A stretch of DNA of 64,000 nt from Spirochaetia bacterium (GCA_963675665.1 OY776510.1:4000001-4064000); one strand, 5' to 3'; numbered from the stretch's first letter, positions 7,662-52,119 are shown. Notes: generated by a model not told the origin, from the letters alone. Translations and numbers: made by a program.

Positions 7662-9800
7662 TTATCTATCTCTTGACGGGCTGTCTTCAACCCATTCCAT
7701 CAGAGTTTTCATTTCTTCAGTATCAGCGGCACGGGCAGCCTCATTTCGGGTCATGTCAAGATAATCAAATTTCCCGGCCAATTCAGGATTGATTTCCCTG
7801 AGTTTGCTGTAATTTTTATTAACAAAACCATAATTCTCAAGTTCATGGTGCGTGCGCGCCAAGCCGAGAAGAACAGCCGGGCTGGAAGGGTTCAGGGCTT
7901 CCGCTTTCCCGTAATAGGATAGAGCGTCTGCCGGTCGCTTTTTTACCAGCATAATATTTCCTGCATTTATAAGAGCGGGAAGATATTCCGAATCAAAAGA
8001 TAAAATTTTCAAAAAATTATATTCTGCCTTATCAGTTAATCCGTAACGCGCATAAAGAGTTCCCAGACTATTAAGCAGCCTTGAGGACTCACCTTCCGAT
8101 GCAATTCTTTCTTCTATTTTATTCACTTTGGGATAAATTTCACTTTCAACAACAGTCTGAAATTCTTTTCCATATGCTTCTTTAACAATTTCGTCATCAG
8201 GTACTGTTATCTGGCCGGCCTGCCCGGGAATTCCAACCGGTTCAAAAACCCGCCATGCTTCATGAGTCGGATAAAGCCTGGCCTCGCCTTCGAACTCAGC
8301 TTCACGCCACTGCCTGCCCCCTTTCTTCCATGCGGAATAAAAACCTCCGGCAAGTTCGGTAATCTCATAAGGAACCCATACAGTGCCGTTGCTGACTATA
8401 AAATCATCACGGCTGCTAAAAACAGCTTCCGCTTCATCCGGGCTTACCCCTGCTTCAAAGGCGATGTAGATATGTCCGGGAACTGTGATAAACGCGGTTT
8501 CGATACCCACTGATTCAAAAAGAGCACAATTCAGAATTGACAGATCATCACAGTCGCCTGCCCGGTATTGCAGAGTCTGCCGGGGGAATTGCAGAAAATC
8601 CAGAACCATTGCGTCTTCAAATGACGGGTTTTGAGTTTCCGGATCTGTGACATAACTTATTCCGTACAATCTCATTATCTCGTTAAGAGCTATTGCGGTT
8701 CTTATGTTCTGACTGATAACTCCGCTGCCGTTCTCACGGGCTATTCCTGCAGCGGTCTTTGCCATGGTCAGAACAACCGGTTCTTTGGAAGTGACAAAAG
8801 CGGCAACCTTTCGATCATCATCCCAGATCGTTGCATTTCTGTTATATATCCTTACCGTTTCGATATACGTTTCCTGATACTCCAGACCGTCGAAATCATA
8901 GTTAAGTACAAGCTCTGCAGAAACCTTTGTCCCCTCGGTGATCTCCAGGATATTATCAGTAAACAGGGCAAAGAGCTCGACCGGTTCTTCTCCCCCCGGT
9001 TCAAGTAATTTAAGCGTGCTGCAGGTCTTGGGATTATCCATATATTTTTTAATAAACAGATTCAGACTGATATTTTCAATCGGTATATCAGTATTATTCG
9101 TCATAATTCCGGATCCGATTGAATGGTCGTCATAATAAGTATAAAATACCGGGAAAATATCAGTAATATTAAAATCATTCAGTACGAGTCTGTTTGATTC
9201 CGCCGCCTGCTGAAGCGGCACAGGTTCGCAGATCACAGGCCCTGATGATTTATCCGTACCTTTTATTTTGATTATTCCAGCCAGAGAAACTGCCGCGCCC
9301 TGATATAAGCCCATATAATTTTTATAACTTCCTTCCAGTCCCAGACTGAACCCGGAGTTAAAAGAAAATATCGTCCCAACGACAGGTTTTATAAACGGGT
9401 TTCCTCCGCCCGGTCCTGTACCGTTATTCAGCATACTGTAAAAATATCCTCCGCAGACTCCGAGATATACCGACAGCCATGAAGCCGGGTCAAGCAGAAT
9501 ACCTGCTTCAGGACCGACAGAAATGGCCGAAACCGCAGTATTCAGCTCAACCGGCAGATAATCATATCCCGCACGAAAACCCGAATAAAGCATCGGAACC
9601 GATCGGAATTTATATTTCATGACCACATCGCATCCAGCCCCTGCTGAAAAGAAATCCGTGTTGTCTTTCCCCAGGGGAAAACCGTATCCCGGGAAAATAC
9701 CGATAGACAGTGACGGTTCAATACTGTCGTCCGCCGGGACTTCTGACAAAACAATGCTGAACATTAAAAGAATAAGCGGCAAGATTTTTTTGATATTCAT
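7662..9800 (-). CDS. Secreted multidomain protein: beta-barrel-like N-terminus, Ig-like domain, transglutaminase-like Cys domain, TPR repeats (paralogue 1)
   Basis: Signal peptide; amphipathic aromatic-rich strands; GDCDDL, PGHIY, WVPYEIT; TPRs such as LNSLGTLYARYG and ALINAGNI. Confidence 0.8.
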   Translation of the reverse strand: MNIKKILPLILLMFSIVLSEVPADDSIEPSLSIGIFPGYGFPLGKDNTDFFSAGAGCDVVMKYKFRSVPMLYSGFRAGYDYLPVELNTAVSAISVGPEAGILLDPASWLSVYLGVCGGYFYSMLNNGTGPGGGNPFIKPVVGTIFSFNSGFSLGLEGSYKNYMGLYQGAAVSLAGIIKIKGTDKSSGPVICEPVPLQQAAESNRLVLNDFNITDIFPVFYTYYDDHSIGSGIMTNNTDIPIENISLNLFIKKYMDNPKTCSTLKLLEPGGEEPVELFALFTDNILEITEGTKVSAELVLNYDFDGLEYQETYIETVRIYNRNATIWDDDRKVAAFVTSKEPVVLTMAKTAAGIARENGSGVISQNIRTAIALNEIMRLYGISYVTDPETQNPSFEDAMVLDFLQFPRQTLQYRAGDCDDLSILNCALFESVGIETAFITVPGHIYIAFEAGVSPDEAEAVFSSRDDFIVSNGTVWVPYEITELAGGFYSAWKKGGRQWREAEFEGEARLYPTHEAWRVFEPVGIPGQAGQITVPDDEIVKEAYGKEFQTVVESEIYPKVNKIEERIASEGESSRLLNSLGTLYARYGLTDKAEYNFLKILSFDSEYLPALINAGNIMLVKKRPADALSYYGKAEALNPSSPAVLLGLARTHHELENYGFVNKNYSKLREINPELAGKFDYLDMTRNEAARAADTEEMKTLMEWVEDSPSRDR

Positions 9801-9824
9801 CTTTATTTATAACCCCTTAGTTGT

Positions 9825-11465
9825 TCAATTGTCTTTCTCACAGGCGCCCATAGACCATCCTCCGGCATTATCATTTGCCGGATCGTTGTCCGGACCGGCT
9901 GCAAGATTGGTCCGTGTTAAACCGTCGAAATCAGTTTCGAATCCCCAGCCGGAAAGTGAGCCGTCCAAACCTCCCTGCCTGACCTCTGCCGGTGAATCGG
10001 CCTTCAGATGCCAGTCGTTATCATTCATGGTTGAAAAATCATTGTCTGTCCCGTCAGGGTCAATGAGCAGAGGATCAGCATCCCAGTTCCCGCCGGCATA
10101 CCCCAGCAAATCTATATCGCCAAGTGTATCGATATCAGCTTCCCCGAAGGTATGGTAAAATATTGTATTACCTTCGATATCATGGAAATCATTATTATGA
10201 ATTGACTGGGCATTACCGTTGTTTGAGGTTGATTCGTATATACAGTATCCGCCTGAAACAGCAACTGAAAAAAGAATATTATTTTCGATAATCGGAGTAG
10301 ATTCATTCTGCAATGAAATTGCGGCACTCCAGTCACTTTCGCCTCCGGCTATAGTATTATTATAGACAGCTGCTGCACCTGAATTACAGATAATTCCAAA
10401 AGAGTCTCCTGATCCTGAAGCCTTGCCGCCAAAAATTATATTATTATATATTTTTGTTCCGTTTTCCGTATCGCTGATAATTCCCGTTGCGGCTCCATCA
10501 ACTGTACGACCGCCGTCAATAACGTTATTCTTTATTTCATTATAAAATCCCTGGTTCTTAACCGCGCAGGCTTCAGATTCTGCAGAACCTCCGAAAATGT
10601 AATTTCCTTCTACAGTCATCCGGGAATCTGTTCCACAGACTACAGCGAACGTCTTTGTCCCGACACCCCCGTCAATATTGTTATCGGTTATTGTTACATT
10701 GGAGCCCTCCTGAACAAGAACTCCGTTATTGCTGCTTCCTGATGTCCCTCCGGTAATAATATTTTCCTGAATTACGGGTAAAGAGTCTCTTGAAATAAAA
10801 ATACCTATATTAATAACAGTAGAAGAACCGCCGTAAATCTCATTTCTCCCTATTAAAGGTCTTGCTGCATCCACGGAAGAAACTGCTGCTGCAATTCCGC
10901 CGGCACTACCTGCATAGATAAAATTATTGGTAACAGTCGGAGATGAAGAAACTATATACAATGCCGTTGAAAGATCTCCGCTTCCGCCCTTTATAACAAA
11001 TCCGTCAAGGATTGTATTTTCAGTAACTCCTGACGGAACTGTAACGGCCTGATTTGTATCGCCTGCAATACCTCCGGAATCGCTCAGATCAATAATTACA
11101 GTAGAATTATTGACAGTATCCCTTGTAATAAAATCCGAAGAATACCCACCGTATAGTGAAACGCCTTCTTTTACAACAATATTATGCCCTTCCCTGTAAT
11201 TAACCTCATAAAGCCCAACAGCAACATAGACTTCCACCGTTTCGGCCAACCCGTCAGCAATATAGCCATAAGCTTTATCTATCCCGGCCTGTATGGTTTT
11301 AAGAGGTTCAGTTTTAACGCCCCGGTTCAAATCATTACCGGAATCAATGCTTACGTAGATAATATTTTCGAAACCCGTCATTCTTTCGATGTATGTCCGC
11401 AGGGCTATATCGCTGCATGAAAACAAAAGACATATAAAAAATAATACTGAAAACTTTCTCAACAT
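9825..11465 (-). CDS. Lipoprotein with a DUF1565-like start and a right-handed parallel beta-helix
   Basis: LLFSC lipobox; YVS...GND.N.G...PLKTIQAGI; repeated xxNxIxGG units; C-terminal DFDGLTR...SMGACE. Confidence 0.8.
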   Translation of the reverse strand: MLRKFSVLFFICLLFSCSDIALRTYIERMTGFENIIYVSIDSGNDLNRGVKTEPLKTIQAGIDKAYGYIADGLAETVEVYVAVGLYEVNYREGHNIVVKEGVSLYGGYSSDFITRDTVNNSTVIIDLSDSGGIAGDTNQAVTVPSGVTENTILDGFVIKGGSGDLSTALYIVSSSPTVTNNFIYAGSAGGIAAAVSSVDAARPLIGRNEIYGGSSTVINIGIFISRDSLPVIQENIITGGTSGSSNNGVLVQEGSNVTITDNNIDGGVGTKTFAVVCGTDSRMTVEGNYIFGGSAESEACAVKNQGFYNEIKNNVIDGGRTVDGAATGIISDTENGTKIYNNIIFGGKASGSGDSFGIICNSGAAAVYNNTIAGGESDWSAAISLQNESTPIIENNILFSVAVSGGYCIYESTSNNGNAQSIHNNDFHDIEGNTIFYHTFGEADIDTLGDIDLLGYAGGNWDADPLLIDPDGTDNDFSTMNDNDWHLKADSPAEVRQGGLDGSLSGWGFETDFDGLTRTNLAAGPDNDPANDNAGGWSMGACEKDN

Positions 11466-26544: not shown

Positions 26545-26653
<109 letters not shown>

Positions 26654-26780
26654 CTAATTATTCATAATTATATCTAACAGGGATAGAAACCGAACTCGAC
26701 AGGTTGCATTTTCAAGGAGTTTTCTTAAACTCACGCAGCCTATTGGTTCAATTCCTTGAGAATTGATTAAGGGGAAATAT

Positions 26781-29772
<2,992 letters not shown>

Positions 29773-30144
29773 ATATTACCTCTTAACCCTTCCCTGTACT
29801 TTTCATCTCCCTGTTATGGACGAAAAGTAATTAAAACTACCTTCTACAGCAGTTCCTTTCTATTTTAAAGAACAGTGAAGTTCAACGTTGTTGAACTTCC
29901 GAAGCTTTTTAAAAGCTTCACAAGTCATCGCTTCGCTCTGACTTTCAGGAGTTTTGCTTTCAGCAAAACATCCGCTTAATTTAACCGTTTAAGGTTTAGT
30001 TTTTTTAAGCAAATTTTTAAAATTTGCAGAAAAAAAAGAGCCATCAGCACAACTGCCAACAACCTTATTAACACACCTCATCGTTCGGTGCGGTGAAGTT
30101 TTCTTTGAAAACTTCAAAATTAAAAGGCGTAGCCTTTTAATAAA

Positions 30145-30219
<75 letters not shown>

Positions 30220-30475
30220 TAAAGCATCCTTCGGATGCTTTTCGGAGTTTTGCTTCACTTCGTTCCGCAAAACATCCATAACTGCAATCCGTTAGTGCTT
30301 TTAGCATCCTTAAACCAGGATACTAAATATAAAAAGGAAGAAGAGAGAGCGGAGAAACGGCAATCCGTTTCTCTGAAGTTTGACTTCGCCAAACTTCACC
30401 ATGTTTGTCATACCCATACGGGTACTTAATCCGGAAATTAGCAGCTGTGCTGACCACTTTCCGTTCCTTTCTCAC

Positions 30476-32015
<1,540 letters not shown>

Positions 32016-36527: not shown

Positions 36528-36602
<75 letters not shown>

Positions 36603-36785: not shown

Positions 36786-36858
36786 TGAGCCGCACAGGGT
36801 TCGAACCTGTGACCCACGCCTTAAAAGGGCGTTGCTCTACCAGCTGAGCTAGCGGCCC
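36786..36858 (-). tRNA. tRNA-Lys(TTT); CCA not encoded
   Basis: GGGCCGCTAGCTCAGCTGGTAGAGCAACGCCCT-TTT-AAGGCGTGGGTCACAGGTTCGAACCCTGTGCGGCTCA. Confidence 0.97.
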
Positions 36859-42119: not shown

Positions 42120-42337
42120 GCTGAGATAATAAAAATTATCGCTGAAAAACGCAATATTCCATTACCGGCTTTTTATTAATATAGGGAGTCTCTTATACCC
42201 TAAAACCTGGATTATCAGGCATTCCCTGTTATATTTATGAAAAGCCTCACTTTGCAAAATCATTTTTTTATACTATTATTTGACAAAATAATGTCAGACA
42301 TTATTTTACCCAACGATATTTGAGGAGATTCATTATA

Positions 42338-43333
42338 ATGGCTTTCAAAGAATTAATGAAAGAAAAAGCAAAAAAACTTCAAAAGAATCTTGTACTGCCC
42401 GAAGGAACTGAAACCCGGACCATGAAGGCTGCAAGAATTATCATCGATGAAGGACTTGCGGCATCAGTTTCACTTATTGGAAATGCTGATGATATTCAAG
42501 CTGCAGCAGCAGATGCAGGCGTAAACCTGAACGGCGTCACCATTGTTGAACCCAAAAAATCTGAAAACTTCAGTGCTTACGCTGCTGAATATTATGAACT
42601 GAGAAAGAAAAAGGGTATTACGGAAGAAGAAGCCGGAGAAGCTATAACTGATCCGCTGAAATGGGGCTCAATGATGGTCCGCCTCGGCGATGCGGATGCG
42701 ATGGTTGCCGGCGCTGAAAACTCGACCGGAAACGTTCTGAGGGCAGCTTTCACGATTATTAAAACAGCCCCGGGGGTAAAATCAGCCTCAAGCTGCTTTG
42801 TAATGTACATGCCGGATTCAGACTGGGGAGTCAACGGAAACATGATTTTTTCTGATTGTGCGACCATACCCAACCCTACCGCCGAACAGCTTTCCGAAAT
42901 TGCCATCGCGGCATCCGAATCATGTAAAAAATTCCTTGATGCGGAACCCTGCACAGCGATGCTTTCTTTCTCAACAAAAGGTTCAGCCAGCCATGAATAT
43001 GTCGACAAGGTTGTCGAAGCAACAAAACTTGCAAAAGAAAAACGGCCTGATCTTAATATCGACGGAGAACTTCAGCTTGACGCCGCTATTGTTCCTGCAA
43101 TAGGCAACAGCAAAGCCCCCGGTTCAAAGGTAGCAGGAAAGGCAAATGTTCTGGTTTTTCCCGACCTTCAGGCCGGAAATATCGGTTACAAACTTGTGCA
43201 GCGACTTGCCGGAGCAGATGCATACGGACCTTTCCTTCAGGGATTTGCAAAACCGGTCAGCGACCTTTCGCGCGGCTGCAGTGTCGATGACATAGTAACC
43301 ACTGCTGCTGTTACAATGGCACAGTCGGAATAA
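42338..43333 (+). CDS. pta: Phosphate acetyltransferase
   Basis: [49 protein letters not shown]; start placed at ATG 42338 after GAGGAG. Confidence 0.96.
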
Positions 43334-43364
43334 AAAAAGACCGCAAAAAACGGTCTTTAACAGT

Positions 43365-43393
43365 GAAAAAAGCTGCCGGAAGGCAGCTTTTTT
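43365..43393. terminator. Bidirectional terminator between pta and the ABC operon
   Basis: AAAAAAGCTGCC-GGAA-GGCAGCTTTTTT. Confidence 0.85.
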
Positions 43394-44310
43394 TATTCCG
43401 TGTACAATTTGCCTGATATAAGGTAAAGATCTTTCCCGGGAGTTTTTCCTGAAAAGTATTCTGCAATCAGGGTAGTCAGCTCCTGCGCCATTGTATCAAA
43501 ATCCTGCTCGATTGTTCCGACAAATGGACCTTTCTTGCCTATTTCGGCCTTTGCAAAGTCGGTACCGTCTATTCCTACAACCTTAATCTCGGTTCTACCG
43601 GCGGCCTCAAGCGCCTGAACTGTTCCGTAAGCAGGTTCATCCCACCCGGCCCAGATGCCTGCAATAGAACCTTTACTGTTGGCGGTTATCAGGTCTTCGG
43701 CTATCTTCCTTGCATTATCAACCGGTCCGGGCACATCGATATGGAATTTATTAATTACCTTAATGCCGGGATAGCTGTCGAATACTTCCTGGGCACCGAC
43801 GGCCCTTGCGCGCACACCCGGATGCGGGTCATGAGTAAACATTATAACATTACCCTTTCCGCTTATTGTCTCGGCAAGCAGTTCTGCGGTTTTCTTTCCA
43901 AGATCAGCATTATCTGATGTGATATTAAGCACAACCCCGTCAGCCAGTCCGGCATCAAGACCGAAAACCGGGATCCCAGCTTCCTTTGCGGCGGCAAGGC
44001 CCTTGGTCATCTGGGCAGGGTCTCCCATTCCCAGAACAATCGCATCAACCTTCTGGGCGACTGCATCTTCAATTCGTGAGACCAGCATGCCGAAATCACC
44101 GGCAGTATCGGAAACATTTACCTTCCAGCCTTCGGCTGAGGCATCCTTCCTGAACTGCTCGATTACATAAGCTGTGGTTGCATTAGCCATATAGGGGGTG
44201 ACAACCGCTACTGTTTTCGAGTCTGCGGCAGCTTCTGATGTTCCTCCTGCAACTGCCGCCATTGCAGCGATCAGCAACACAAGTACTGAAACAATGATTC
44301 GTTTAATCAT
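43393..44310 (-). CDS. Sugar ABC transporter substrate-binding protein (RbsB-like)
   Basis: Signal peptide, VDAIVL, AGIPVFGLD, SDN..G, VVGIDG, TIEQD. Confidence 0.9.
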   Translation of the reverse strand: MIKRIIVSVLVLLIAAMAAVAGGTSEAAADSKTVAVVTPYMANATTAYVIEQFRKDASAEGWKVNVSDTAGDFGMLVSRIEDAVAQKVDAIVLGMGDPAQMTKGLAAAKEAGIPVFGLDAGLADGVVLNITSDNADLGKKTAELLAETISGKGNVIMFTHDPHPGVRARAVGAQEVFDSYPGIKVINKFHIDVPGPVDNARKIAEDLITANSKGSIAGIWAGWDEPAYGTVQALEAAGRTEIKVVGIDGTDFAKAEIGKKGPFVGTIEQDFDTMAQELTTLIAEYFSGKTPGKDLYLISGKLYTE

Positions 44311-44374
44311 TTCTTCCTCCGTTATTTTGATAATATAAAAGACAATTTCAAACCTGACGTGTTATGAAACAGCC

Positions 44375-45880
44375 TTATAAACCCTTAATATCAGAAAAGG
44401 ATTCTTTTAAAACAGGATACAGTTTCCTGAAAACAGGACCGGCTTTTCTGTAGAACTCAGTCATGTCATTATCGGGAAAAACAACCGTTTCATCATTTCT
44501 AAAAGAACCGGGCAGTTCAAAGGAATCAAACCAGCCGCTTGCCTTTCCGGCAATAAGGAGGTTGCCTGTAAGACCTGCTTCTGAAGTTGCGGGCGAGAGT
44601 ATTACGCGGCAGCCGGTAACCGAAGCGATTATTTCTGTCCAGAGACTGTTGGATGCGCCCCCACCTGAAATCCTGATTTCCAGGCGTTCATGACTGCCCT
44701 CTGTAATCGTCCCGAGAATTGAATCAAGCGAATAAGCCACCCCCTCAAGAACAGCCCTGAACATTGCGCCTTTGCCCGTGCCCCTGTTCAGTCCGATAAA
44801 CGCCCCGCGGGCATCAGGGTCTCTGAACGGCGAACGCTCGCCGGACAGGTAAGGCAGGTAAAAAACCCCGTTGCTGCCTGGTTTGACGGCAGAAGCTTCT
44901 TCCGTAAGGGTATGGAAATCAGCTGACGTGCCGGTTGCGCCCGATAATCCGGAGAGTATCCCGGCGGCCCATTCCGTGTTTCCGCCGGCGGTTATCATTG
45001 AACCTATATTTATCACTTTTGAAGGATCCGGATGCTTCAAATTGAATATTCCTGTTGCAGGGTCAACAGTACGGTCACCTGTTGTTGTAATCCAGCCTGA
45101 AGTGCCAAGATAACATGAAAGAACACCGGCAACCCCGGAGCCCGCACCTATAGTCGAAGAGCCTGCGTCGCCGGCCCCGTGTAACACAGTCAGACCGGCC
45201 GGAAGTCCGGTAAGTCCTGAAGCTTCGGCCGAAACTTTTCCTGCCGGTTCATCCGCCCCCTGCAGAACAGGAAACCTTTCTGTGGAAATACCTATAAAAT
45301 CAGCAAGCCCGCTGTTCCATGAGTTTTTATCAAAATCCAGCAGCTGGGTTGTTGATGCATTGGTATAATCCGTTACAAAAGCCCCGGTAAGCTTCCAGCA
45401 GATATAATCATGCGCACCCATCAGAAAAAATGTTTCGTCGTCAGCAAGCTCCGGCCGGTTTTTTCTGAGCCACAGGAATTTTGAAGGAAGCCCCGCTGCA
45501 TCACTCAGGTTTGCCGAAGAGGTTATAATACGTTTTTCACCAAACTCACGGTGCAGAAACTTCAGCTCATCAGCAGCACGTGTATCTGAATACAATATGG
45601 CGTTTCCGATCGGGTGGCCGTCTTTGATGCAGACAAGGTCCTGCATTTGCCCGCTGAGAACAATAAGCTCAAAATCATTACGCTCAGATTGATTCAACAG
45701 CTCTTTTGTTCCTCTGTAGAAAGCGTTCCACCAGTGTTCAGGATCCTGCTCGGCTCTTGTTCCGTCGGTTATAACGGGGTAGTTTTCCGAAGCTGAGGCG
45801 AGAACTTCCCCGCCTTCAGTAATTATAGCCAGCTTTACAGCGGTAGTTCCGATATCGGCCGACAGAATAACACTTTTCAT
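44375..45880 (-). CDS. FGGY-family carbohydrate kinase (xylulokinase-like)
   Basis: DIGTTAVK, EQDPEHWW, SGQMQ, TDYTNAS.T, GAGD, LGTSGW, LPYLSGERSP, RAVLEGVAY, SGGGA. Confidence 0.92.
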   Translation of the reverse strand: MKSVILSADIGTTAVKLAIITEGGEVLASASENYPVITDGTRAEQDPEHWWNAFYRGTKELLNQSERNDFELIVLSGQMQDLVCIKDGHPIGNAILYSDTRAADELKFLHREFGEKRIITSSANLSDAAGLPSKFLWLRKNRPELADDETFFLMGAHDYICWKLTGAFVTDYTNASTTQLLDFDKNSWNSGLADFIGISTERFPVLQGADEPAGKVSAEASGLTGLPAGLTVLHGAGDAGSSTIGAGSGVAGVLSCYLGTSGWITTTGDRTVDPATGIFNLKHPDPSKVINIGSMITAGGNTEWAAGILSGLSGATGTSADFHTLTEEASAVKPGSNGVFYLPYLSGERSPFRDPDARGAFIGLNRGTGKGAMFRAVLEGVAYSLDSILGTITEGSHERLEIRISGGGASNSLWTEIIASVTGCRVILSPATSEAGLTGNLLIAGKASGWFDSFELPGSFRNDETVVFPDNDMTEFYRKAGPVFRKLYPVLKESFSDIKGL

Positions 45881-46665
45881 GCAACCTCCAGGAACTGCCT
45901 GAACCGGGACAGATAACCCGAGATTTTGTTATCTCCGCCGATGACTGCTTTCAGAAAGGATGTGCCGACTATAACGGCGTCAGCGCCGGCCTTCTCTGCT
46001 TCAACCGCATCAGCCGGAGAGTTAATACCGAAACCGACGCCGACGGGAAGGCGTTCGGGCGCTGCCAGCCGCTTTGCCATATCAAGCCGTCTGAGAAACG
46101 ATTCTCCGACGGAGAATTGTCCCCCGGTCGGGCCTTCCGACGACTGAAGATAAAGAAAACCGCTTGTAAGGCCGATTATCTCTTTCATCTCTTTTTCAGA
46201 AAGTCCCGTTACCGCAAAACTGACAACCTCTACTCCTGTTTTCGAAGCCTCAACAAAAAGCTTTCTCCGGTTTTCCATGGTGATATCAGGAACAAGGACC
46301 GCACTGATTCCGCATTCCGCACAGTCGGAAACCAGTTCCCTTATTCCGTACTGAATAAGGGTATGCTCATAAAGCATCGTAATACCGTTAAGCCCGCAGG
46401 CGGTTATAATCTTTCCGGAATCAATGTTGAATGCCGAAATACTTCTGTCCGCTCTGGTCAGTTTTGAAAGTGTGCCTTTAATCAGTTCACCGTCAAGAAA
46501 GGGTGTAGCCGTCGGCATTCCGACCTCAATAAACTTCAGTCCGCCTTCGGCCAGTTGCCGGACTATACGGAGAAATCCGTCGTTGTCCGGAAAAAGCGCC
46601 GGAAGATACCCGATAAGAGGCGCCCTTTTTCGTTTTTCAATAAAATTGAATATTTCGTTTTTCAT
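45877..46665 (-). CDS. Tryptophan synthase alpha-subunit-like TIM-barrel lyase (orphan TrpA homologue)
   Basis: IEVGMP...P..DG, VLVPD, GFLYLQS..GPTG, PVGVGFGI, GADAVIVGTS; no trpB or other trp gene in the window. Confidence 0.88.
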   Translation of the reverse strand: MKNEIFNFIEKRKRAPLIGYLPALFPDNDGFLRIVRQLAEGGLKFIEVGMPTATPFLDGELIKGTLSKLTRADRSISAFNIDSGKIITACGLNGITMLYEHTLIQYGIRELVSDCAECGISAVLVPDITMENRRKLFVEASKTGVEVVSFAVTGLSEKEMKEIIGLTSGFLYLQSSEGPTGGQFSVGESFLRRLDMAKRLAAPERLPVGVGFGINSPADAVEAEKAGADAVIVGTSFLKAVIGGDNKISGYLSRFRQFLEVA

Positions 46666-47636
46666 CAGCCCTTCTTCTTGGCAAGACTTGAAACAAGGAC
46701 TGCCAGTATTATTATCATGCCGGTAAGGATCGATTGGACATAGGTGTTTATACCCAGAATATTAAGCCCGTTGCCCATCACCCCCATTATAAAAACCCCA
46801 AGCAGGGTCCCCCATACATTGGCCTCGCCTTCCCTGAATGCCGTCATTCCTAGAAAAACTGCTGCCGCTGCATTTAGCATAAACGGCGCGCCGGCCTGGG
46901 GATGCGCTGAATACAGGCGGCTTGTAAGCACAATTCCGCCGAGAGCAGCAAAAAATCCGGATATGCCGAAGGCCGCCATGCGAATCCTTCTTGTATTTAT
47001 TCCGGAAAGAAATGAAGCTTCCTCGTTGCCGCCAATCGCATAAAGCCTGCGCCCGTAAACCGTCTGTTCAACAAGGGTATAAATAATTACAAGTACCAGG
47101 AGCATTATCAAAACGGACACCGGAATAAATCCCAGATTCCCCTGCCCGATAAACCTGAAATTCTCCGGCAGTCCGAAAATTGTCGTCCCCTTCGACAAAA
47201 GAAGAGCGGCGCCCCCGTAGGCAGTCATGGTTGCCAGCGTACCTACAAAGGCCGACAGCCCCCCGTAAGCGATAAGCAGGCCATTCAACAGCCCAGCCGC
47301 TGTTCCGATTCCAAGAGCACAGATTATGCTCACAGCGGTGCCGGCGCCGGCCTGCATCATCATTGCGGCAATTATTCCGACCAGGCTTGATACCGCCCCT
47401 ACCGACAGGTCAAAATCACCCGTAATCATTACCACAGTCACGCCGGAAGCAACTATTGAAAGGGTTGCGACCTGTTCGATAATATTTCTCAGGTTTCTGG
47501 CCGACGGAAAAACATCCGGCCTGATCAGCGTAAAGATGATCATCAGCAGAATGAAACAAAGAAGTGTGCCCCAGGTTCTTATAAGTCTCACCGGGTTCAG
47601 TTTTTCAGTTCGGTATTTATTTTCTGTTAAATCCAT
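46665..47636 (-). CDS. Sugar ABC transporter permease (RbsC-like)
   Basis: TVVMITGDFDLSVG, AFVGTLAT, YGRRLYAIGGNEEASFLSGI; start placed at ATG 47636. Confidence 0.93.
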   Translation of the reverse strand: MDLTENKYRTEKLNPVRLIRTWGTLLCFILLMIIFTLIRPDVFPSARNLRNIIEQVATLSIVASGVTVVMITGDFDLSVGAVSSLVGIIAAMMMQAGAGTAVSIICALGIGTAAGLLNGLLIAYGGLSAFVGTLATMTAYGGAALLLSKGTTIFGLPENFRFIGQGNLGFIPVSVLIMLLVLVIIYTLVEQTVYGRRLYAIGGNEEASFLSGINTRRIRMAAFGISGFFAALGGIVLTSRLYSAHPQAGAPFMLNAAAAVFLGMTAFREGEANVWGTLLGVFIMGVMGNGLNILGINTYVQSILTGMIIILAVLVSSLAKKKG

Positions 47637-47638
47637 TT

Positions 47639-49135
47639 TCAGTTTTTCCTTCCATAGCAAAAATTAAGATACTGCTCCTGATTTATTCCCGAGTTTTTTT
47701 CAACAAAAGTCTGTTTGCCTTCGAAAAGAAAAAGTATTCTGTCGCAAAGACCTAAAATCTCATTAAAATCGGAACTTACAAGCAGTACAGCCGCACCTGC
47801 GTCGGCTATTTTCCTGATTAGTGTATAAATCTCGAAGCGTGCTCCGACATCGACGCCTTTGGACGGCTCATCAAGCAGCAGTAGCCTGGGCGGGTTGAGA
47901 ATCGTTTTAGCAAAAACAACTTTCTGCTGGTTACCCCCCGAGAGAGTTCCGGCATGGTTTCTGTAATCGGCTGTTTTAAGTTTAACATCCTTCCCCACGG
48001 ACTCTGCGGCCTGCCTGAGCTGCTTGTGTCTCAAAAACCCAAGCGAGGCAAGAGAATCAAGATACATAAGGGAAATATTGTCATAGATTGCCCTGTTCAG
48101 AACAAGCCCCTGTTTACGTCTTTCCTCGGGCACAAGTACAACGCCCTGCTTTACCGCCTGTTTGGGAGAGGAAGGCTTGTATTCACTGCCGGAAAGCTGC
48201 ATACTGCCGTTTTCAAGCTTTCTGGCCCCGAAGATAGTCTCAAGCAGCTCAGTCCGGCCGGCCCCGACAAGACCGCCTATCCCCAGGATTTCACCGCTTT
48301 TCACATCGAAATTGATATTATTGATATCGGAATTTCGGCAATTTTCCATTCTGAAGACAGTATTCCCCCGTACAGACTTTTTTTCCGGAAAAACCGACCC
48401 GAGATCACGGCCTATCATCAGTGATATCAGTTTGTCTTTATCGAGTTCCGATGCCGGACTTTCTTTAACAACCTGCCCGTCTCTCATCACCGTTACGCTG
48501 TCACAGATTCTCAGGACATCATCAAGATTGTGCGACACATAGACTATGGTCCGCCCCTGCTGCTTCAGTACGCTTATGACCTCAAACAGCTTCTCCTTCT
48601 CGATATCAGTCAAAGCAGTTGCCGGTTCATCCATAAAATAAATGGAACCGTCTACCGCAAACCCCCTGGCTACTGCAATCATTGCCCTTTCAACAGCCGA
48701 CAGATAGGATACAGGCCTGTTTATCGGGATTTTCATATTCAGCCTGTCAAGGATTTCAACTGTTCTTTTTCTCAGCCCTCTCCAGTTGATGAGCCTGCCG
48801 GGTTTTTCAGGGTAATCATGACCGAGAAATATATTTTCACATGCATTGAAATAATCAATCAGGTTCAGTTCCTGGTGAATAAAACAAAGCCCGGCATCTG
48901 AAGAATCTCTTGCTGTTTTTATATCGATCTTTTTACCGTTAACAAGAATGTCGCCTGAATCAGGTTTAACCACACCTGCAAGAGATTTTATCAAAGTTGA
49001 TTTCCCCGCTCCGTTCTCTCCTACCAGACCGTGTACGGTACCCTTTTCAAAATCGAGATCCACGCCTTTGAGTGCATGGACACCCGCGTAGGATTTACTC
49101 AGACCTTTTACGGTCAGTGCTGAAGTCTGCTTCAT
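47639..49135 (-). CDS. Sugar ABC transporter ATP-binding protein (RbsA-like, two ABC domains)
   Basis: GENGAGKST, MDEPA, GLVGAGRTEL, LSGGNQQK, LDEPSKGVDVGA. Confidence 0.95.
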   Translation of the reverse strand: MKQTSALTVKGLSKSYAGVHALKGVDLDFEKGTVHGLVGENGAGKSTLIKSLAGVVKPDSGDILVNGKKIDIKTARDSSDAGLCFIHQELNLIDYFNACENIFLGHDYPEKPGRLINWRGLRKRTVEILDRLNMKIPINRPVSYLSAVERAMIAVARGFAVDGSIYFMDEPATALTDIEKEKLFEVISVLKQQGRTIVYVSHNLDDVLRICDSVTVMRDGQVVKESPASELDKDKLISLMIGRDLGSVFPEKKSVRGNTVFRMENCRNSDINNINFDVKSGEILGIGGLVGAGRTELLETIFGARKLENGSMQLSGSEYKPSSPKQAVKQGVVLVPEERRKQGLVLNRAIYDNISLMYLDSLASLGFLRHKQLRQAAESVGKDVKLKTADYRNHAGTLSGGNQQKVVFAKTILNPPRLLLLDEPSKGVDVGARFEIYTLIRKIADAGAAVLLVSSDFNEILGLCDRILFLFEGKQTFVEKNSGINQEQYLNFCYGRKN

Positions 49136-49936
49136 CTACTCAAGGTCCTCCCAGAGTCCGGCATCGGAAAACCTGTCCGTCTCATTGCTTTCATCTTTCC
49201 GCCTGATTATATATTTAAATTTATTGTTCCTGCCGTATCTTGCCGATGCAATAAAAACAGATTGCCCCGGAAGAAATGCTTCATCAAAAATCACAACCCT
49301 GCCGTCAAGACTTAGGCTGATTCTTTGCGACAGGAAAACCGGCTCTCCCGAATTCACTTCAAGCAATCCGGATTCCGGTTCGGCAATAACAGCCGGAATA
49401 ACTATCTCGCGACCTTTTGTAAGCATCAGTCCCGCTTTTTCCGACATAATCTGATACAGTGAAGATTCCCGGCTGTAAGTTTCAATTATCTCTTTATATT
49501 CATCGGGAATATATGATCGCTGAAGTATTACCGGTTTTTCCCCGATTTTTCTTAATCTTGTCAACACTGAAAATTTTTCAACATTGTCTTTAAAAATACG
49601 TTTAACCTTGCTGTTTTTAATGCCGTAATCTTTTTGAATGATTTCCGTACTGATTTTCATGGATTTTGAATCCATCTCATTCTGAAAACCCTGCAGTGAA
49701 ATATTCTCCGAATGCATTCTTTGCGCCGACACAAAAGTCCCCGTACCGTGAACAACCGAGATCAGCCCTTCTTCTTCAAGCACAGACAAAGCCTGTCTTA
49801 TTGTCATTACCGATGTTTTAAAGCTCACAGAGAGCTCTTTCTGACTGGGAAGCAATGTTCCGTTCTGCAGAGCCCCGTCTATAATTCTGTTTTTCAGCAC
49901 CCGGGCAATTTCCAGGTATCTTAACTGTTTAGCCAT
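49136..49936 (-). CDS. GntR-family (HutC/UTRA) transcriptional regulator
   Basis: LPSQKEL...TSVMTIRQAL..L.EEGLI...HGTGTFV plus a UTRA-like C-terminal domain. Confidence 0.92.
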   Translation of the reverse strand: MAKQLRYLEIARVLKNRIIDGALQNGTLLPSQKELSVSFKTSVMTIRQALSVLEEEGLISVVHGTGTFVSAQRMHSENISLQGFQNEMDSKSMKISTEIIQKDYGIKNSKVKRIFKDNVEKFSVLTRLRKIGEKPVILQRSYIPDEYKEIIETYSRESSLYQIMSEKAGLMLTKGREIVIPAVIAEPESGLLEVNSGEPVFLSQRISLSLDGRVVIFDEAFLPGQSVFIASARYGRNNKFKYIIRRKDESNETDRFSDAGLWEDLE

Positions 49937-49957
49937 TCTCTACTCTTATAGTTATAT

Positions 49958-50005
49958 AGACTTCTAGATGTCTGTATTTTAAATATATATTGACAATCTG
50001 TCAAT
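49958..50005 (-). promoter_or_regulatory. Sigma70 promoter and candidate GntR operator(s) of the ABC/TrpA-like operon
   Basis: TTGACA (50004-49999)-17 bp-TAAAAT (49981-49976); palindrome AGACTTCTAGATGTCT at 49958-49973 over the predicted start; inverted repeat ATTGACA-ATC-TGTCAAT at 49989-50005. Confidence 0.7.
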
Positions 50006-50166: not shown

Positions 50167-50195
50167 TTGACAATTCATATTTCAAAAGTTATGTT
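50167..50195 (+). promoter_or_regulatory. Sigma70 promoter for the riboswitch-dapBA unit
   Basis: TTGACA-17 bp-TATGTT, ~20 nt before the riboswitch. Confidence 0.7.
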
Positions 50196-50214
50196 TAGTA
50201 CAAATTATTGCACC

Positions 50215-50388
50215 GGTAATAGAGGCGCGGTATTCAATCAGTAGTATGCAGAGGAAGCGGGTTCCGAAGAAGCATTATGAAAGGTGAAACCGCCGAAGGG
50301 TTTTTTCAGCCGCTGGAAGAATTCTGGGATTAAAAGAGAATACTTTTAATACTGTCAGTGTTTTCATAACGCTGGGGCGCTATCTACC
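50215..50388 (+). ncRNA. Lysine riboswitch (L-box)
   Basis: AGAGGCGCG...AGTA...GAAAGG...CGCCGAA...CTGGG...GAATA...ACTGTC...GGGGCGCTA with P1 GGTAATAG/CTATCTACC, upstream of dapB-dapA. Confidence 0.92.
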
Positions 50389-50453
50389 ATAACCTTTCAG
50401 AGTTGCAGCATCCTGTAGCCTCTTGATTCCGGGCAAAGAATAAGGGGTAAATA

Positions 50454-51212
50454 TTGGTCAGGGTAATTTTAATAGGCTCAAACGGCAGAATGGGACAGGT
50501 ACTCACTTCTCTTATTGATGCAAGAGAAGGGATGGCAGTAACCGCCGGTATTGATCTAAATACAAAATCAGAAAACTATCCGGTTTTTAACAGCCTTCAG
50601 GACTTCAATGGTAAAGCAGATGTAATTATTGATTTCTCACACCCGGATACTATCAGTGGTTATCTACCGGAAGCCGTAAAAAGAAAACTCCCTGTTGTAA
50701 TTGCAACAACCGGTCTTTCAGATAAAATAATTACGATGATCAATGAAGCTTCAGAAAAGATCCCTGTATTCATATCAGCAAATATGTCTCTTGGAATCAA
50801 TCTTCTGCAGCAGCTTATAAGCAAAGCAGCCATGGTACTCGGAAATGAGTTCGAGGTTGAAATAGTTGAAAAACATCATAAAATGAAAAAGGATTCTCCG
50901 AGCGGAACAGCGTTAATGCTGGCTGACTCGATCAATAAAGTTAAAGGAAACAAGTTCAGAAAGGTTTGTGGACGCGAAGGCACTGATTGCCTTCGTCAGT
51001 CTGATGAGATTGGCATCCATGCGGTGCGCGGAGGCACAATAGTGGGGGAACATGATGTATATTTTACCGGTACCGACGAGGTCATTAAAATCGGGCATAT
51101 TGCATATTCCAGAAATGTGTTCGCAACAGGCGCTATAGCCGCCGCTGAGTTTTTATACAAATGCAAACCCGGCATCTATGACATGCAGGATCTTATCAGC
51201 AGCTCGGTCTGA
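50454..51212 (+). CDS. dapB: 4-hydroxy-tetrahydrodipicolinate reductase
   Basis: GSNGRMG, IIDFS, ATTG, SANMSLG, EKHHKMKKDSPSGTA, RGGTIVGEH; TTG start. Confidence 0.96.
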   Translation: MVRVILIGSNGRMGQVLTSLIDAREGMAVTAGIDLNTKSENYPVFNSLQDFNGKADVIIDFSHPDTISGYLPEAVKRKLPVVIATTGLSDKIITMINEASEKIPVFISANMSLGINLLQQLISKAAMVLGNEFEVEIVEKHHKMKKDSPSGTALMLADSINKVKGNKFRKVCGREGTDCLRQSDEIGIHAVRGGTIVGEHDVYFTGTDEVIKIGHIAYSRNVFATGAIAAAEFLYKCKPGIYDMQDLISSSV

Positions 51213-51240
51213 CCAAAACCGACTATTCAGGAGGAAATTA

Positions 51241-52119
51241 ATGAAACTTGAAGGTGTCTTTACAGCACTGGTAACCCCGTTCAATGATGAAGGGGCTGTC
51301 GATGAAAAATGTTTGCGCGATCTTGTGGATTTTCAGATAGCCAAAGGAATTTCAGGCCTTGTTCCGGTTGGGACCACCGGTGAAAGCCCGACTCTCAATC
51401 ACCAGGAACACGACAAGGTTATTGAGACTGTAATTGAACAGACAGATAAACGTGTTCCTGTAATAGCCGGTACAGGCTCCAATTCAACTGCAGAAGCTAT
51501 CAGACTTACCAAACACGCAAAAGAAGCGGGCGCGGATCTTAGTCTTCAGGTTGCCCCTTACTACAACAAACCGTCCCAGGAAGGTTTTTACAGGCATTTC
51601 ATGGCAATAGCTGATGCTATCGACATGCCCATGGTCGTTTACAATATCCCTGGACGAAGCGGCAAAAATATTGAGAACAGCACCATGCTGAAGCTTGCCG
51701 ATCACCCGAATATAGTTGCTGTCAAGGAAGCCAGCGGCAGCATCCCGCAGGTTATGGATCTCTGCCTGAAAAAACCCGATGATTTCACGATTTTGTCCGG
51801 CGACGATAATCTGGGACTGCCTATAATCGCCTGCGGAGGACGGGGAATTATCTCTGTTGCTTCAAACATCATACCTGAAGAAATGGAAGAACTTGTAAGA
51901 AGCGCCAATGCCGGAAATTTTGAAAAAGCCAGGGAAATGCATTATCAGCTTCTGCCCTTCTTCAAGGCTCTTTTCATAGATACAAACCCTGTGCCGGTTA
52001 AATACGGATGCTTTCTGAAAGGAATGATGAAAGAAGTATACAGGCTTCCGCTTTGCGGAATGAGTGATGAATATAAAAAAGATTTCGAAGAAATTATGAA
52101 GAAAACCGGACTTCTTTAG
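51241..52119 (+). CDS. dapA: 4-hydroxy-tetrahydrodipicolinate synthase
   Basis: TALVTPF, GTTGESPTL, PYYNKP, YNIPGR, VKEASG, LSGDD; start at ATG 51241 after AGGAGG. Confidence 0.97.
   Translation: MKLEGVFTALVTPFNDEGAVDEKCLRDLVDFQIAKGISGLVPVGTTGESPTLNHQEHDKVIETVIEQTDKRVPVIAGTGSNSTAEAIRLTKHAKEAGADLSLQVAPYYNKPSQEGFYRHFMAIADAIDMPMVVYNIPGRSGKNIENSTMLKLADHPNIVAVKEASGSIPQVMDLCLKKPDDFTILSGDDNLGLPIIACGGRGIISVASNIIPEEMEELVRSANAGNFEKAREMHYQLLPFFKALFIDTNPVPVKYGCFLKGMMKEVYRLPLCGMSDEYKKDFEEIMKKTGLL

Follow-up and report, generated by a model that had tools for sequence, protein, structure and literature searches.

The window analysed here is a stretch of 64,000 nucleotides from the genome of a Spirochaetia bacterium (GCA_963675665.1, OY776510.1:4000001-4064000). 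Its minus strand carries, at 43393–50005, a tightly packed operon of six genes encoding, in order, a GntR/UTRA repressor, a two-domain ABC ATPase, a permease, a TrpA-like protein, an FGGY kinase and a receptor similar to ribose-binding proteins. All six ORFs lie where the initial annotation had placed them in a single operon, and belong to the families that it had named. It had also described the operon as free of trpB and other trp genes; no trp gene is present among the ORFs of 43393–50005, and a canonical trpB-trpA pair is found elsewhere in the genome.

The first gene (49136–49936) encodes a regulator of the HutC type, with an N-terminal winged-helix GntR domain (PF00392, 65.1 bits) and a C-terminal UTRA effector domain (PF07702, 62.9 bits), which reaches the cut-off of no NCBIfam equivalog. 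A direct reading of the sequence shows its TAG stop codon abutting the ATG of the ATPase gene (47639–49135) without a gap. Two nucleotides beyond the TGA that ends the ATPase gene stands an ATG (47636), a likelier start for the permease than the TTG at 47660 chosen by the ORF lister, from which that gene would span 46665–47660. The stop/start overlaps reported earlier on both sides of the TrpA-like gene (45877–46665) are indeed there: 1 nt (TGATG) is shared with the permease gene at 46665, and 4 nt (ATGA) with the kinase gene (44375–45880) at 45880–45877. The receptor gene (43393–44310) is preceded by a 64-nt spacer, has its own ribosome-binding site and encodes a signal peptide.

Upstream of the regulator gene, a sigma-70-type promoter-like site, TTGACA-17-TAAAAT (49976–50004, minus strand), agrees with the consensus at 11 of 12 positions. 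Its −35 box is inside a perfect palindrome, TTGACA-GAT-TGTCAA, read at 50004–49990. The −10 box is directly followed by an operator-like element, ACAGACATCTAGAAGTCTATA (49955–49975, minus strand), recognized by the conservation of this motif upstream of GntR genes. In 13 further loci (L132, L134-L137, L139, L145, L156, L159, L191, L199, L211 and L225), a near-identical motif, TATAGACATCTAGAAGACTATA(AG), stands upstream of the GntR gene; variants occur in L138 and L141-L143, and the TTGACA box is equally spaced from the operator in most related loci. This palindromic motif of ∼22 nt, located at the GntR gene's own promoter and conserved across families, is likely to be where the GntR/HutC-type repressor encoded in the operon binds. 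The sole other match in the genome with three or fewer mismatches sits within an ORF and is probably due to chance.

Two terminator-like hairpins with T-runs, found by scanning and by reading the sequence, lie after the receptor stop (43336–43388, minus strand). The first (∼43388–43366) has the form GCTGCC-TTCC-GGCAGC followed by T6; the second (43358–43336) probably also serves the convergent pta gene. The operon thus has candidates for the promoter, operator and closing terminator of its own that had been proposed for it. Consensus scans were not enriched overall compared to shuffled sequences (11 promoter-like sites versus a mean of 9.6); what supports these sites is their placement and conservation, not the scan count.

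The ATPase with its two ABC_tran domains, the BPD_transp_2 permease (PF02653, 127.9 bits) and the Peripla_BP_4 receptor are encoded together, as expected for an importer of the CUT2 (ribose) type. The best NCBIfam model for the ATPase is RbsA, with 474.6 bits against a cut-off of 745, and none of the operon's proteins reaches the cut-off of a substrate-specific equivalog (Rbs, Als, Xyl, Ara and Mgl models). The receptor, assigned by profile match and a structure model, has the ribose-binding-protein fold (Foldseek TM 0.81–0.91 to ribose-binding proteins). Of the eleven positions that we take to be the ribose contacts of E. coli RbsB, four are kept in this receptor and seven are changed.

The kinase (501 aa) contains both FGGY_N (PF00370, 165.4 bits) and FGGY_C (PF02782, 108.4 bits) domains, as well as the catalytic aspartate; Asp238, which aligns with Asp245 of GlpK, is invariant in the cassette kinases. 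Its nearest relatives are xylulokinases and gluconokinase, and its best NCBIfam model is XylB (TIGR01312), where it scores 316.6 bits, below the cut-off of 380.25. The cassette kinases share the signature residues M-Q-(A/S)-D-W, of which Met79-Gln80 is invariant, while Met-His occupies the first two specificity positions in the XylB-I signature (PMC3245297). A xylulokinase is rejected on both grounds. Elsewhere in the genome, three genes score above the XylB cut-off and are better matches than the cassette kinase. At least 28 FGGY paralogues are encoded in all, a number suggestive of a diet of many sugars.

The TrpA-like protein (262 aa), a putative C–C lyase acting on the kinase product, scores 125.1 bits with PF00290 (cut-off 27) and 116.4 bits with the trpA model TIGR00262 (cut-off 102.35). 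The latter margin is thin, and two full-length homologues from other cassettes fall below it (99.7 and 95.9 bits). Its AlphaFold2 model (pLDDT 94.8, pTM 0.92) is a TrpA-type (β/α)8 barrel, and its leading Foldseek hits are without exception chains of TrpA or BX1 (top TM 0.86–0.90). In an alignment with E. coli TrpA (23% identity), E47 and D58 correspond to the catalytic Glu49 and Asp60, Y172 to Tyr175, and T180-G181 of loop 6 to Thr183-Gly184, while G211-F212-G213-I214 and G234-T235 match the phosphate-binding stretches; the earlier by-eye assignment of these residues is therefore correct. One study describes mechanistic roles of Glu49 and Asp60 in TrpA and how poorly active this enzyme is when it lacks a partner (PMC11574760).

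Residue conservation was counted over 70 rows of the cassette clade (66 distinct), some positions having letters in only 69. Thr180, Gly181, G211-F212-G213, Gly234, Leu124 and Tyr172 are present in all 70 rows, Glu47 in 69/69, Asp58 and Tyr20 in 68/69 each, and Met97, Tyr99 and Phe150 in 69/70 each. These near-invariant catalytic, phosphate-binding and apolar pocket residues are consistent with a lyase of the TrpA type whose substrate is phosphorylated. The apolar pocket residues also pack the barrel, so that their conservation speaks only moderately for an apolar ligand. The pocket differs from that of E. coli TrpA by F22Y, A59L, L100M, A129P and I153F. Because the side chains at four of these positions (F22Y, A59L, A129P and I153F) are larger than in the E. 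coli enzyme, indole itself may not fit.

The initial annotation had also noted that residues facing TrpB are changed. This is true of the present copy, in which IPFSDPLADG has become MPTATPFLDG and YAN has become YEH, but only partly of the clade. Asn104 is kept in just 1/70 rows; at the TrpB-contact position Asp56, however, aspartate is found in 25/69, so that its loss is a trait of this copy and not of the clade. TrpB binding may therefore not be lost.

The TrpA-like gene is an extra paralogue beside a canonical trpA. A canonical trpC-trpB-trpA set, with a trpA (191.5 bits) that overlaps trpB, is located ∼1 Mb from the operon (trpB-trpA at G000:C1:5099460-5101396). Canonical trpA, trpB and trpC are present in 15/15 tested genomes with the cassette, always with trpA adjoining trpB, and a second full-length trpB is found in many of them (two matches over the cut-off in 8/15). 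In a tree that took in no BX1 sequence, the cassette TrpA-like proteins form a distinct clade, separate from canonical TrpA. The gene thus lacks the marks of a trp-operon trpA, namely a place next to trpB and retained interface residues.

The cassette recurs in 27 further loci, of which 14 are in genomes of the class sample, one was reached through the receptor and 12 are on metagenome contigs. A clade member is present in 14/400 other genomes of the class sample. Of these 14 loci, once fetched, 13 have the kinase gene directly after the TrpA-like gene, and the contig of the remaining one stops within the TrpA-like gene; the permease gene precedes it in 13, the exception being a decayed locus (L140). 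Apart from L140, wherever the locus DNA reaches far enough, the TrpA-like gene has an Rbs-like permease gene on one side and an FGGY kinase gene on the other. From the metagenomes, 80 loci were fetched and 46 had any TrpA match. Twelve of these carry a clade member (33–46% identity), all 12 in cassette order; the remaining 34 have no cassette neighbour, and their matches are canonical-like (≤31% identity), except for one 155-residue match on a 1.7-kb contig. A receptor-based search returned the same genomes and two more, one with a full cassette and a 32% identical TrpA-like protein, the other on a contig that ends after the kinase gene. No cassette lacking the TrpA-like gene was seen among the surveyed loci. 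The survey and the tree thus bear out the distinct clade, recurring with an FGGY kinase and an Rbs-like permease, that the initial annotation had predicted. It had named as fatal to its reading a gene that is the genome's only trpA and whose homologues lack conserved linkage; canonical trpBA is present here and in every other cassette genome tested, and the linkage is conserved. Its interpretation is thus supported in part, with indole-3-glycerol or a C-glycoside as the putative substrate.

The six genes are conserved as a unit, as are their promoter and operator. The genes flanking them are not conserved between loci, and no isomerase, dehydrogenase or second aldolase is a cassette member in the related genome loci. 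The identity of the GntR homologues heading the cassettes is 38–54% in these loci (33% in G608), that of the ATPase 52–66%. The TrpA-like protein and the kinase (33–51%) diverge much faster than the receptor and the permease (63–83%, also the range of the permease itself), a disparity that counts against the reading favoured below. The TrpA-like protein evolves fastest of the six (33–50% in the genome loci); in a genome of the same genus it is 47% identical while the neighbouring pta product is 85% identical. In one lineage of the clade it is fused to the kinase, and it is never fused to TrpB. One such ORF, in G734, contains Trp_syntA (16–250), FGGY_N (269–509) and FGGY_C (520–706), and 11 protein clusters of this kind (59–100% identical) have source names in Sphaerochaetaceae. 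Both its genomic surroundings and its fusion to the kinase suggest that the TrpA-like protein may work independently of TrpB.

The operon is best explained as a self-contained, locally repressed module for the uptake and cleavage of a substrate. The conserved cassette, carried by a small set of spirochaetes, suggests a route not yet described by which an imported compound would be cleaved to yield a sugar phosphate for glycolysis. The reading that we favour, to which we give slightly less than an even chance, is import followed by terminal phosphorylation and a TrpA-type retro-aldol cleavage to glyceraldehyde-3-phosphate and an apolar, probably N-heteroaromatic, leaving group. The receptor and the CUT2 importer would take up a monosaccharide-sized compound with a free glycerol-like tail, X-CHOH-CHOH-CH2OH, and the FGGY kinase would place a phosphate on its terminal hydroxyl. 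The TrpA paralogue, for which the kinase and not TrpB would be the working partner, could then hold this phosphate in the usual GFG / G-T site and detach X from the glycerol phosphate through the retro-aldol mechanism of TrpA, with Glu47 as the proton shuttle and Asp58 holding the N–H of X or its equivalent; Thr180 of loop 6 is also kept. D-glyceraldehyde-3-phosphate would enter glycolysis; for the apolar X, an N-heteroaromatic ring is the likeliest candidate, for instance indole or a smaller one. The substrate, or the phosphorylated intermediate, might free the operator from the GntR/HutC repressor.

A bolder version of this proposal, which we consider doubtful, is that neighbouring microbes shed a heteroaryl-glycerol (such as indole-3-glycerol or a smaller-ring analogue), and that the cassette imports and phosphorylates it before cleaving it to glyceraldehyde-3-phosphate, with release of the ring. 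It would be the first bacterial pathway of nutrient use or salvage to be built on a TrpA-family C–C lyase with a sugar kinase in the place of TrpB. A literature search returned no description of this gene set. Against the favoured reading in general, ribose-type binding proteins and FGGY kinases normally handle plain sugars and polyols, and we know of no precedent for an aromatic ligand in either family; nor is free indole-3-glycerol, to our knowledge, an abundant nutrient. If true, anaerobes would have a new route by which to gain carbon and to cross-feed one another with indole or tryptophan precursors, and TrpA would have left tryptophan synthase a second time, independently of BX1/IGL in plants.

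The main rival, possible though on the whole unlikely, involves a non-aromatic sugar: the kinase would make the phosphate of a ketose, deoxy-sugar or keto-deoxy-acid, which the TrpA-like barrel converts by enediol(ate) chemistry. This could be a retro-aldol reaction to glyceraldehyde-3-phosphate and a small carbonyl, as in DeoC, Eda and fructose-6-phosphate aldolase, or an aldose-ketose isomerization or epimerization with Glu47 as the proton shuttle. The ribose-type importer and receptor, the four retained RbsB contacts, the kinase's relatives and the many FGGY paralogues are all consistent with such a substrate, and the group of phosphate-binding barrels to which TrpA belongs also includes sugar-phosphate epimerases and isomerases. 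However, the Glu/Asp pair and the equivalent of Thr183, which serve enamine-type chemistry in TrpA, are strictly kept along with the apolar pocket, an unsystematic look noticed no conserved lysine or metal-binding site of the kind with which aldolases handle enolate leaving groups, and the cassette never includes the auxiliary enzymes listed above.

It is quite improbable that the TrpA-like protein is non-catalytic and binds a phosphorylated ligand to activate or regulate the kinase, thus mirroring the activation of TrpA by TrpB. Its rapid evolution and its fusion to the kinase would suit such a partner, but a mere scaffold would not need the catalytic and phosphate-binding residues that nearly all 70 rows retain. 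Least credible of all, to the point of being very improbable, is a spare α subunit of tryptophan synthase that works with TrpB and is in the operon by chance: the score above the trpA cut-off, the complete set of TrpA catalytic residues and the second trpB matches speak for it, whereas its separate clade, the homologues below the cut-off, the trpA already beside trpB in every cassette genome, fusions that join the kinase and never TrpB, and a permease–kinase position kept in the 27 further loci (bar the permease-less L140) speak against it.

The favoured scheme of phosphorylation and retro-aldol cleavage has counterparts among known systems. In pseudouridine catabolism, an analogy already drawn in the initial annotation, the kinase PsuK acts before PsuG, which breaks a C–C bond and so releases the sugar phosphate from its heteroaromatic ring. 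The likeness is one of logic only: PsuK, a ribokinase-type enzyme, and PsuG, with a fold of its own, are both unrelated to the cassette families, and the cassette has no nucleoside-type transporter. The Lsr system (LsrACDB, LsrK, LsrG and LsrF) follows the same logic as the cassette, with a CUT2 importer, an FGGY kinase and cleavage to a triose phosphate. An autoinducer-2 system of this kind is rejected: the cassette proteins score 120.3 bits with LsrK (cut-off 528), 374.1 with LsrA (586) and 134.3 with LsrC (388), and fall far below the cut-off of LsrD, and no homologue of LsrF, LsrG or LsrR is found in or beside the cassette. The E. coli rbs and als operons share the two-domain ATPase, BPD_transp_2 permease, Peripla_BP_4 receptor, kinase and local repressor, and in als there is likewise a single phosphate-binding barrel enzyme, allulose-6-phosphate 3-epimerase. 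In the cassette, by contrast, the kinase is FGGY and not ribokinase/ROK, and the barrel enzyme is a TrpA paralogue.

With TrpA of E. coli and Salmonella, the cassette protein shares the fold, Glu49/Asp60, Thr183-Gly184, Tyr175 and the GFGI and G-S/T phosphate site, but it is an extra copy of low identity, with an altered pocket and with Asn104 almost never kept in its clade, and its gene is never beside trpB, its neighbours being the genes of an ABC permease and of an FGGY kinase (the permease is missing in decayed L140). Plants have TrpA paralogues of their own, the stand-alone indole-3-glycerol-phosphate lyases BX1 and IGL, which share the catalytic pair and need no TrpB for their work outside tryptophan synthesis (PMC11574760). 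The model superimposes on maize BX1 (1tjr) with a TM of 0.87. The plant enzymes are fed by the cell's own indole-3-glycerol phosphate, whereas the substrate of the cassette enzyme would come from a dedicated kinase acting on an imported compound, with that kinase as its partner.

Domain and family models assign the six ORFs at 43393–50005 (minus strand) to exactly the families proposed in the initial annotation. These are a GntR regulator with a UTRA domain (49136–49936), an ABC ATPase with two nucleotide-binding domains (47639–49135), a permease (BPD_transp_2; 46665–47660), a TrpA-like protein (45877–46665; PF00290, 125.1 bits; TIGR00262, 116.4 bits, cut-off 102.35), an FGGY kinase (44375–45880; best model XylB, 316.6 bits, cut-off 380.25) and a binding protein, the receptor (Peripla_BP_4; 43393–44310), all on the minus strand. 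The genes are tightly packed, without space for signals between them, with the exception of the binding-protein gene, which alone is set apart by a 64-nt spacer and has its own GGAGG. At the junctions, the ATPase ATG abuts the TAG stop of the GntR gene, and the permease more likely starts at the ATG at 47636, 2 nt past the ATPase TGA. One base (TGATG, at 46665) belongs to both the permease and the TrpA-like gene, and an ATGA overlap (45880–45877) joins the TrpA-like and kinase genes. Two hairpins with T-runs lie beyond the last stop codon of the operon.

The operon neighbours are unrelated: a convergent phosphate acetyltransferase gene (pta) on one side, and on the other a lysine riboswitch (50212–50390, plus strand; Rfam RF00168, 105.9 bits), which is divergent from the operon and preceded by a promoter-like site (50167–50195). 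From their translations only, we take the ORFs behind the riboswitch (50454–51212 and 51178–52119) to resemble dapB and dapA. Elsewhere in the window are a complete rRNA operon (16S, tRNA at 30145–30218, 23S, 5S; 26545–32015, minus strand) and two further tRNA genes (36531–36602 and 36786–36858).

The TrpA-like gene is not the only trpA of its genome, which is a single contig of 5.15 Mb. A better trpA match (191.5 bits) overlaps trpB at C1:5099460–5101396, adjoining trpC. The same holds more widely, as a canonical trpA beside trpB, plus trpC, is found in all 15 cassette genomes (that of the window and 14 others). A second full-length trpB (528.8 bits; C1:2904590–2905732) stands alone between aminotransferase and Mur-ligase-like genes, and two trpB matches above the cut-off are present in 8 of the 15 genomes. 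Release of indole by the cassette, if it occurs, would make this second trpB relevant.

To relatives in a 5.8-billion-protein collection, the TrpA-like protein is 38–49% identical in about 15 cases, among them two clusters named Spirochaetales bacterium. Beyond one protein, P0017 (37%), identity falls to 32% or less, which corresponds to canonical TrpA. Among 1.84 billion cluster representatives searched with a profile, ∼24 clusters scored at least 241 bits, and a thin tail (209–188 bits) preceded the canonical continuum. One 630-residue representative from that search (P0110, 253 bits) proved to be a tandem canonical TrpA and was not counted as a member of the clade. An ESM Atlas look-up returned TrpA clusters only. 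A contig scan with the clade alignment yielded, among the matches listed, only canonical TrpAs (27–34% identity, mostly actinobacterial), because the peptide patterns were too general.

A quick maximum-likelihood tree was built from 88 sequences, comprising 38 of cassette type, 2 intermediate ones and 48 canonical ones, the latter being whichever the similarity search returned. A branch with an SH-aLRT of 85 sets all canonical sequences apart, and the main cassette subclade, with 34 sequences, is supported at 99%. Because the tree is unrooted and its branches are long, separateness alone is read from it; to that extent, it bears out the expectation that the cassette proteins are distinct from canonical TrpA. 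The two intermediate proteins (P0017 and P0018; 28–37% identical) fall on the cassette side and have the LIGYLPA and YLQS motifs of the clade. One cluster member of this group is named Bellilinea sp. (Chloroflexota); none of 401 Chloroflexota genomes contained a match to P0018 at E ≤ 1e-55. Clade members were found in 14 of 400 other genomes in a sample of the class, representing 11 of 156 genera (that of the window included), and in none of 400 other genomes in a phylum-wide sample, where the best match was 32% identical.

The 14 loci from the class sample were fetched and compared with the six proteins of the window. The kinase gene comes after the TrpA-like gene in 13 of them, the contig of the 14th stopping within the TrpA-like gene, and the permease gene is upstream in 13 of 14. 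Eight loci show the complete order regulator-ATPase-permease-TrpA-like-kinase-receptor; this count includes L139, with its fused genes, and L142, whose receptor is known from the receptor search. One locus (L138, G481:C203) has a five-gene cassette without a receptor, with sulfatase and CUT1 ABC genes after the kinase; a search of this whole genome (90% complete) gave no receptor orthologue at E ≤ 1e-60. Another (L140, G523:C70, ∼7706–10064) looks like a decayed remnant: the TrpA-like ORF is missing its first ∼80 residues, the kinase is shortened, the receptor is a 155-residue fragment, and the regulator, ATPase and permease are absent, with an adenosine-deaminase gene upstream. The decay is possibly an artefact of the fragmented assembly (380 contigs).

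Two further surveys agree with this arrangement. A motif scan of metagenomes gave at least 119 stretches; among the 80 that were fetched, a TrpA match was present in 46 loci. All 12 loci at 33–46% identity show the cassette order, and the remaining 34 have no cassette gene and identities of 31% or less, the single exception to the latter being a 1.7-kb contig with a 34% match over 155 residues. In two of the metagenome contigs (L156 and L159), the permease match is in two pieces, as is the TrpA-like match of L156, which suggests frameshifts or sequencing errors; the upstream regions of both are nearly identical to that of locus L137. The receptor-based search identified 14 other genomes at E ≤ 1e-118 and none further down to 1e-60. 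The TrpA-like gene is present in 12 of these, and two genomes were new: G608, with a complete cassette and a TrpA-like gene at 32% identity, and G621, whose contig ends past the kinase. In none of the genome, metagenome and receptor surveys was a cassette seen with another enzyme in place of the TrpA-like protein. The recurrence of the clade with an FGGY kinase and an Rbs-type importer, anticipated from the single operon, is thus found across class and metagenome loci. Since the flanking genes vary by locus, the six genes constitute a self-contained module.

One genome (G734) encodes the TrpA-like protein and the kinase in a single ORF of 759 residues (Trp_syntA 16–250, FGGY_N 269–509, FGGY_C 520–706). 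A search with its first 262 residues detected 11 fusion clusters (59–100% identical, 689–765 residues), all with the three Pfam domains and with source names Sphaerochaetaceae and Sphaerochaeta. The window protein as query found no longer fused relatives at E ≤ 1e-20, a weak negative since the fused-ORF query found them. The fusions form one well-supported branch of the tree, indicating that the fusion arose once and persisted. No other single observation speaks as strongly for the two proteins acting on successive steps and, probably, touching each other. Repressor, importer, kinase and TrpA paralogue together form a single conserved module, within which the kinase and the paralogue are obligately linked and in some cases joined in one protein.

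A promoter-like site, TTGACA-17-TAAAAT (50004–49976, minus strand), precedes the operon. Immediately 3′ of its −10 box lies ACAGACATCTAGAAGTCTATA (49975–49955, minus strand), and 13 other loci, which come from several families, have a near-identical TATAGACATCTAGAAGACTATA(AG) 5′ of their GntR gene; divergent loci carry recognisable variants. A whole-genome search with this operator-like motif gave one other match, which has three mismatches and lies inside a 637-residue ORF and was therefore taken as chance, leaving no second convincing copy in the genome of the window. A single conserved operator looks like what would be expected of a dedicated HutC-type repressor with one target. The −35 hexamer sits in a perfect 6-3-6 palindrome (TTGACA-GAT-TGTCAA, 50004–49990, minus strand), which was not seen in the related loci and could be either chance or a second protein site specific to the strain.

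The AlphaFold2 model of the TrpA-like protein has high confidence (pLDDT 94.8, pTM 0.92), and every one of the best structural matches is a TrpA or BX1 chain (TM 0.86–0.90 for the top ones). Residues were counted over 70 clade sequences (66 distinct) from genome loci, metagenome loci, fusions and representatives, in E. coli TrpA numbering. The pocket residues compared are those taken to line the E. coli site. Thr183, Gly184, Gly211-Phe212-Gly213, Gly234, Leu127 and Tyr175 are present in 70 of 70, Tyr102 in 69 of 70, Glu49 in 69 of 69 and Asp60 in 68 of 69. Consistent substitutions are Phe22 to Tyr (68/69), Ala59 to Leu (65/69), Leu100 to Met (69/70), Ala129 to Pro (64/70) and Ile153 to Phe (69/70). 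By these alignments, the clade retains the whole phosphate-binding and acid-base apparatus, with an apolar and somewhat narrower pocket. In TrpA, Glu49 is described as proton donor and acceptor and Asp60 as acting on the indole N1-H (PMC11574760). The same source describes TrpA as a poor enzyme alone because loops 2 and 6 need a partner to close. Of the proposed changes in residues facing TrpB, that at Asn104 is borne out (kept in 1 of 70), and that at Asp56 is only partial, as 25 of 69 sequences keep this residue; the clade may plausibly have lost the TrpB interface.

The cassette kinase has E. coli XylB as its closest relative among solved structures (187 bits), yet it scores below the XylB cut-off. 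At the five FGGY specificity positions, defined from GlpK Arg83, Glu84, Tyr135, Asp245 and Phe270 (PMC3245297), the cassette kinases have Met-Gln-(Ala/Ser)-Asp-Trp, with Met79, Gln80, Asp238 and Trp263 invariant; XylB-I has Met-His at the first two (PMC3245297). The genome of the window contains 28 matches to the XylB (FGGY) model at E ≤ 1e-40, an unusually large paralogue family; three of its members exceed the cut-off of that model, and the kinase of the cassette is eighth in rank. A xylulokinase operon was rejected given the score below cut-off, the different signature and the better XylB genes elsewhere in the genome. Also rejected were an Lsr autoinducer-2 system (scores far below cut-offs, no LsrF or LsrG), polyol catabolism (a dehydrogenase is never part of the cassette) and, by reasoning on chemical grounds only, pterin side-chain cleavage.

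The receptor model (pLDDT 87.4) has the ribose-binding-protein fold (TM 0.81–0.91, 22–29% identity). The receptor retains four (Asn13, Asp89, Asp215 and Gln235) of the eleven residues that we take to contact ribose in E. coli RbsB; the other seven are changed, including Phe15 and Phe16 to Thr, Phe164 to Asn and Asn190 to Trp. The predicted ligand is monosaccharide-sized and partly sugar-like, and is not ribose. Across the genome loci, identities are 33–50% for the TrpA-like protein and 40–51% for the kinase, compared to 65–77% for the receptor and 63–83% for the permease; divergence is far quicker in the two enzymes than in the transport proteins. In a genome of the same genus (G471, locus L132), the cassette lies beside pta, as in the window (42320–46665), and the pta product is 85% identical to that of the window, compared to 47% for the TrpA-like protein and 50% for the kinase.

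Since the cassette never has an isomerase or dehydrogenase, the imported compound would be phosphorylated directly by the kinase. The TrpA paralogue would act on the phosphorylated product, given its intact phosphate site. The retro-aldol reaction of TrpA would be the simplest chemistry, as the Glu/Asp/Thr machinery is intact (Glu47, Asp58 and Thr180 in the window protein). It would free glyceraldehyde-3-phosphate and leave a carbon nucleophile able to bear protonation, such as an enamine-like ring carbon (indole, pyrrole or imidazole) or possibly a phenol. We hold this retro-aldol reading tentatively, at a little short of an even chance. The main rival, possible though doubtful, is that an enolisable sugar phosphate is handled in the same geometry, the protein being an aldolase, isomerase or epimerase. 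When mapped on indole-3-glycerol phosphate, ketohexose 6-phosphate, 2-deoxyribose 5-phosphate or 2-keto-3-deoxy-6-phosphogluconate would have the scissile or reacting carbon at the place of indole C3; however, the leaving groups of such sugar phosphates normally need a lysine or a metal. Within the retro-aldol reading, indole-3-glycerol itself, the example of a substrate given initially, is an unlikely candidate. A purely regulatory role of the TrpA-like protein, whose catalytic residues are nearly invariant, is very improbable, and a spare trpA, in genomes that all have a canonical one, is hardly credible.

Whatever the substrate, the cassette would represent a new physiological role for the TrpA family and a new specificity for the FGGY family; if the lyase reading is true, it would be a new way to feed glycolysis from a C–C-linked conjugate. 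The module is small and self-contained, with a natural single-polypeptide form predicted to be a kinase-lyase and a highly conserved soluble receptor, whose mature form is 63–78% identical across the cassette loci; this makes the ligand question accessible to standard binding and coupled enzyme assays. Public records name cassette proteins “tryptophan synthase subunit alpha” or “xylulokinase”, and annotators should treat such labels on these genes with caution. We found no description of this gene set in the open-access full-text literature searched (open-licence PubMed Central and bioRxiv). To our knowledge, the only roles known for TrpA elsewhere are those of the alpha half of tryptophan synthase and, in plants, of a stand-alone indole-forming lyase; here, an ordinary-looking sugar-uptake operon has a recruited TrpA paralogue as its key enzyme.
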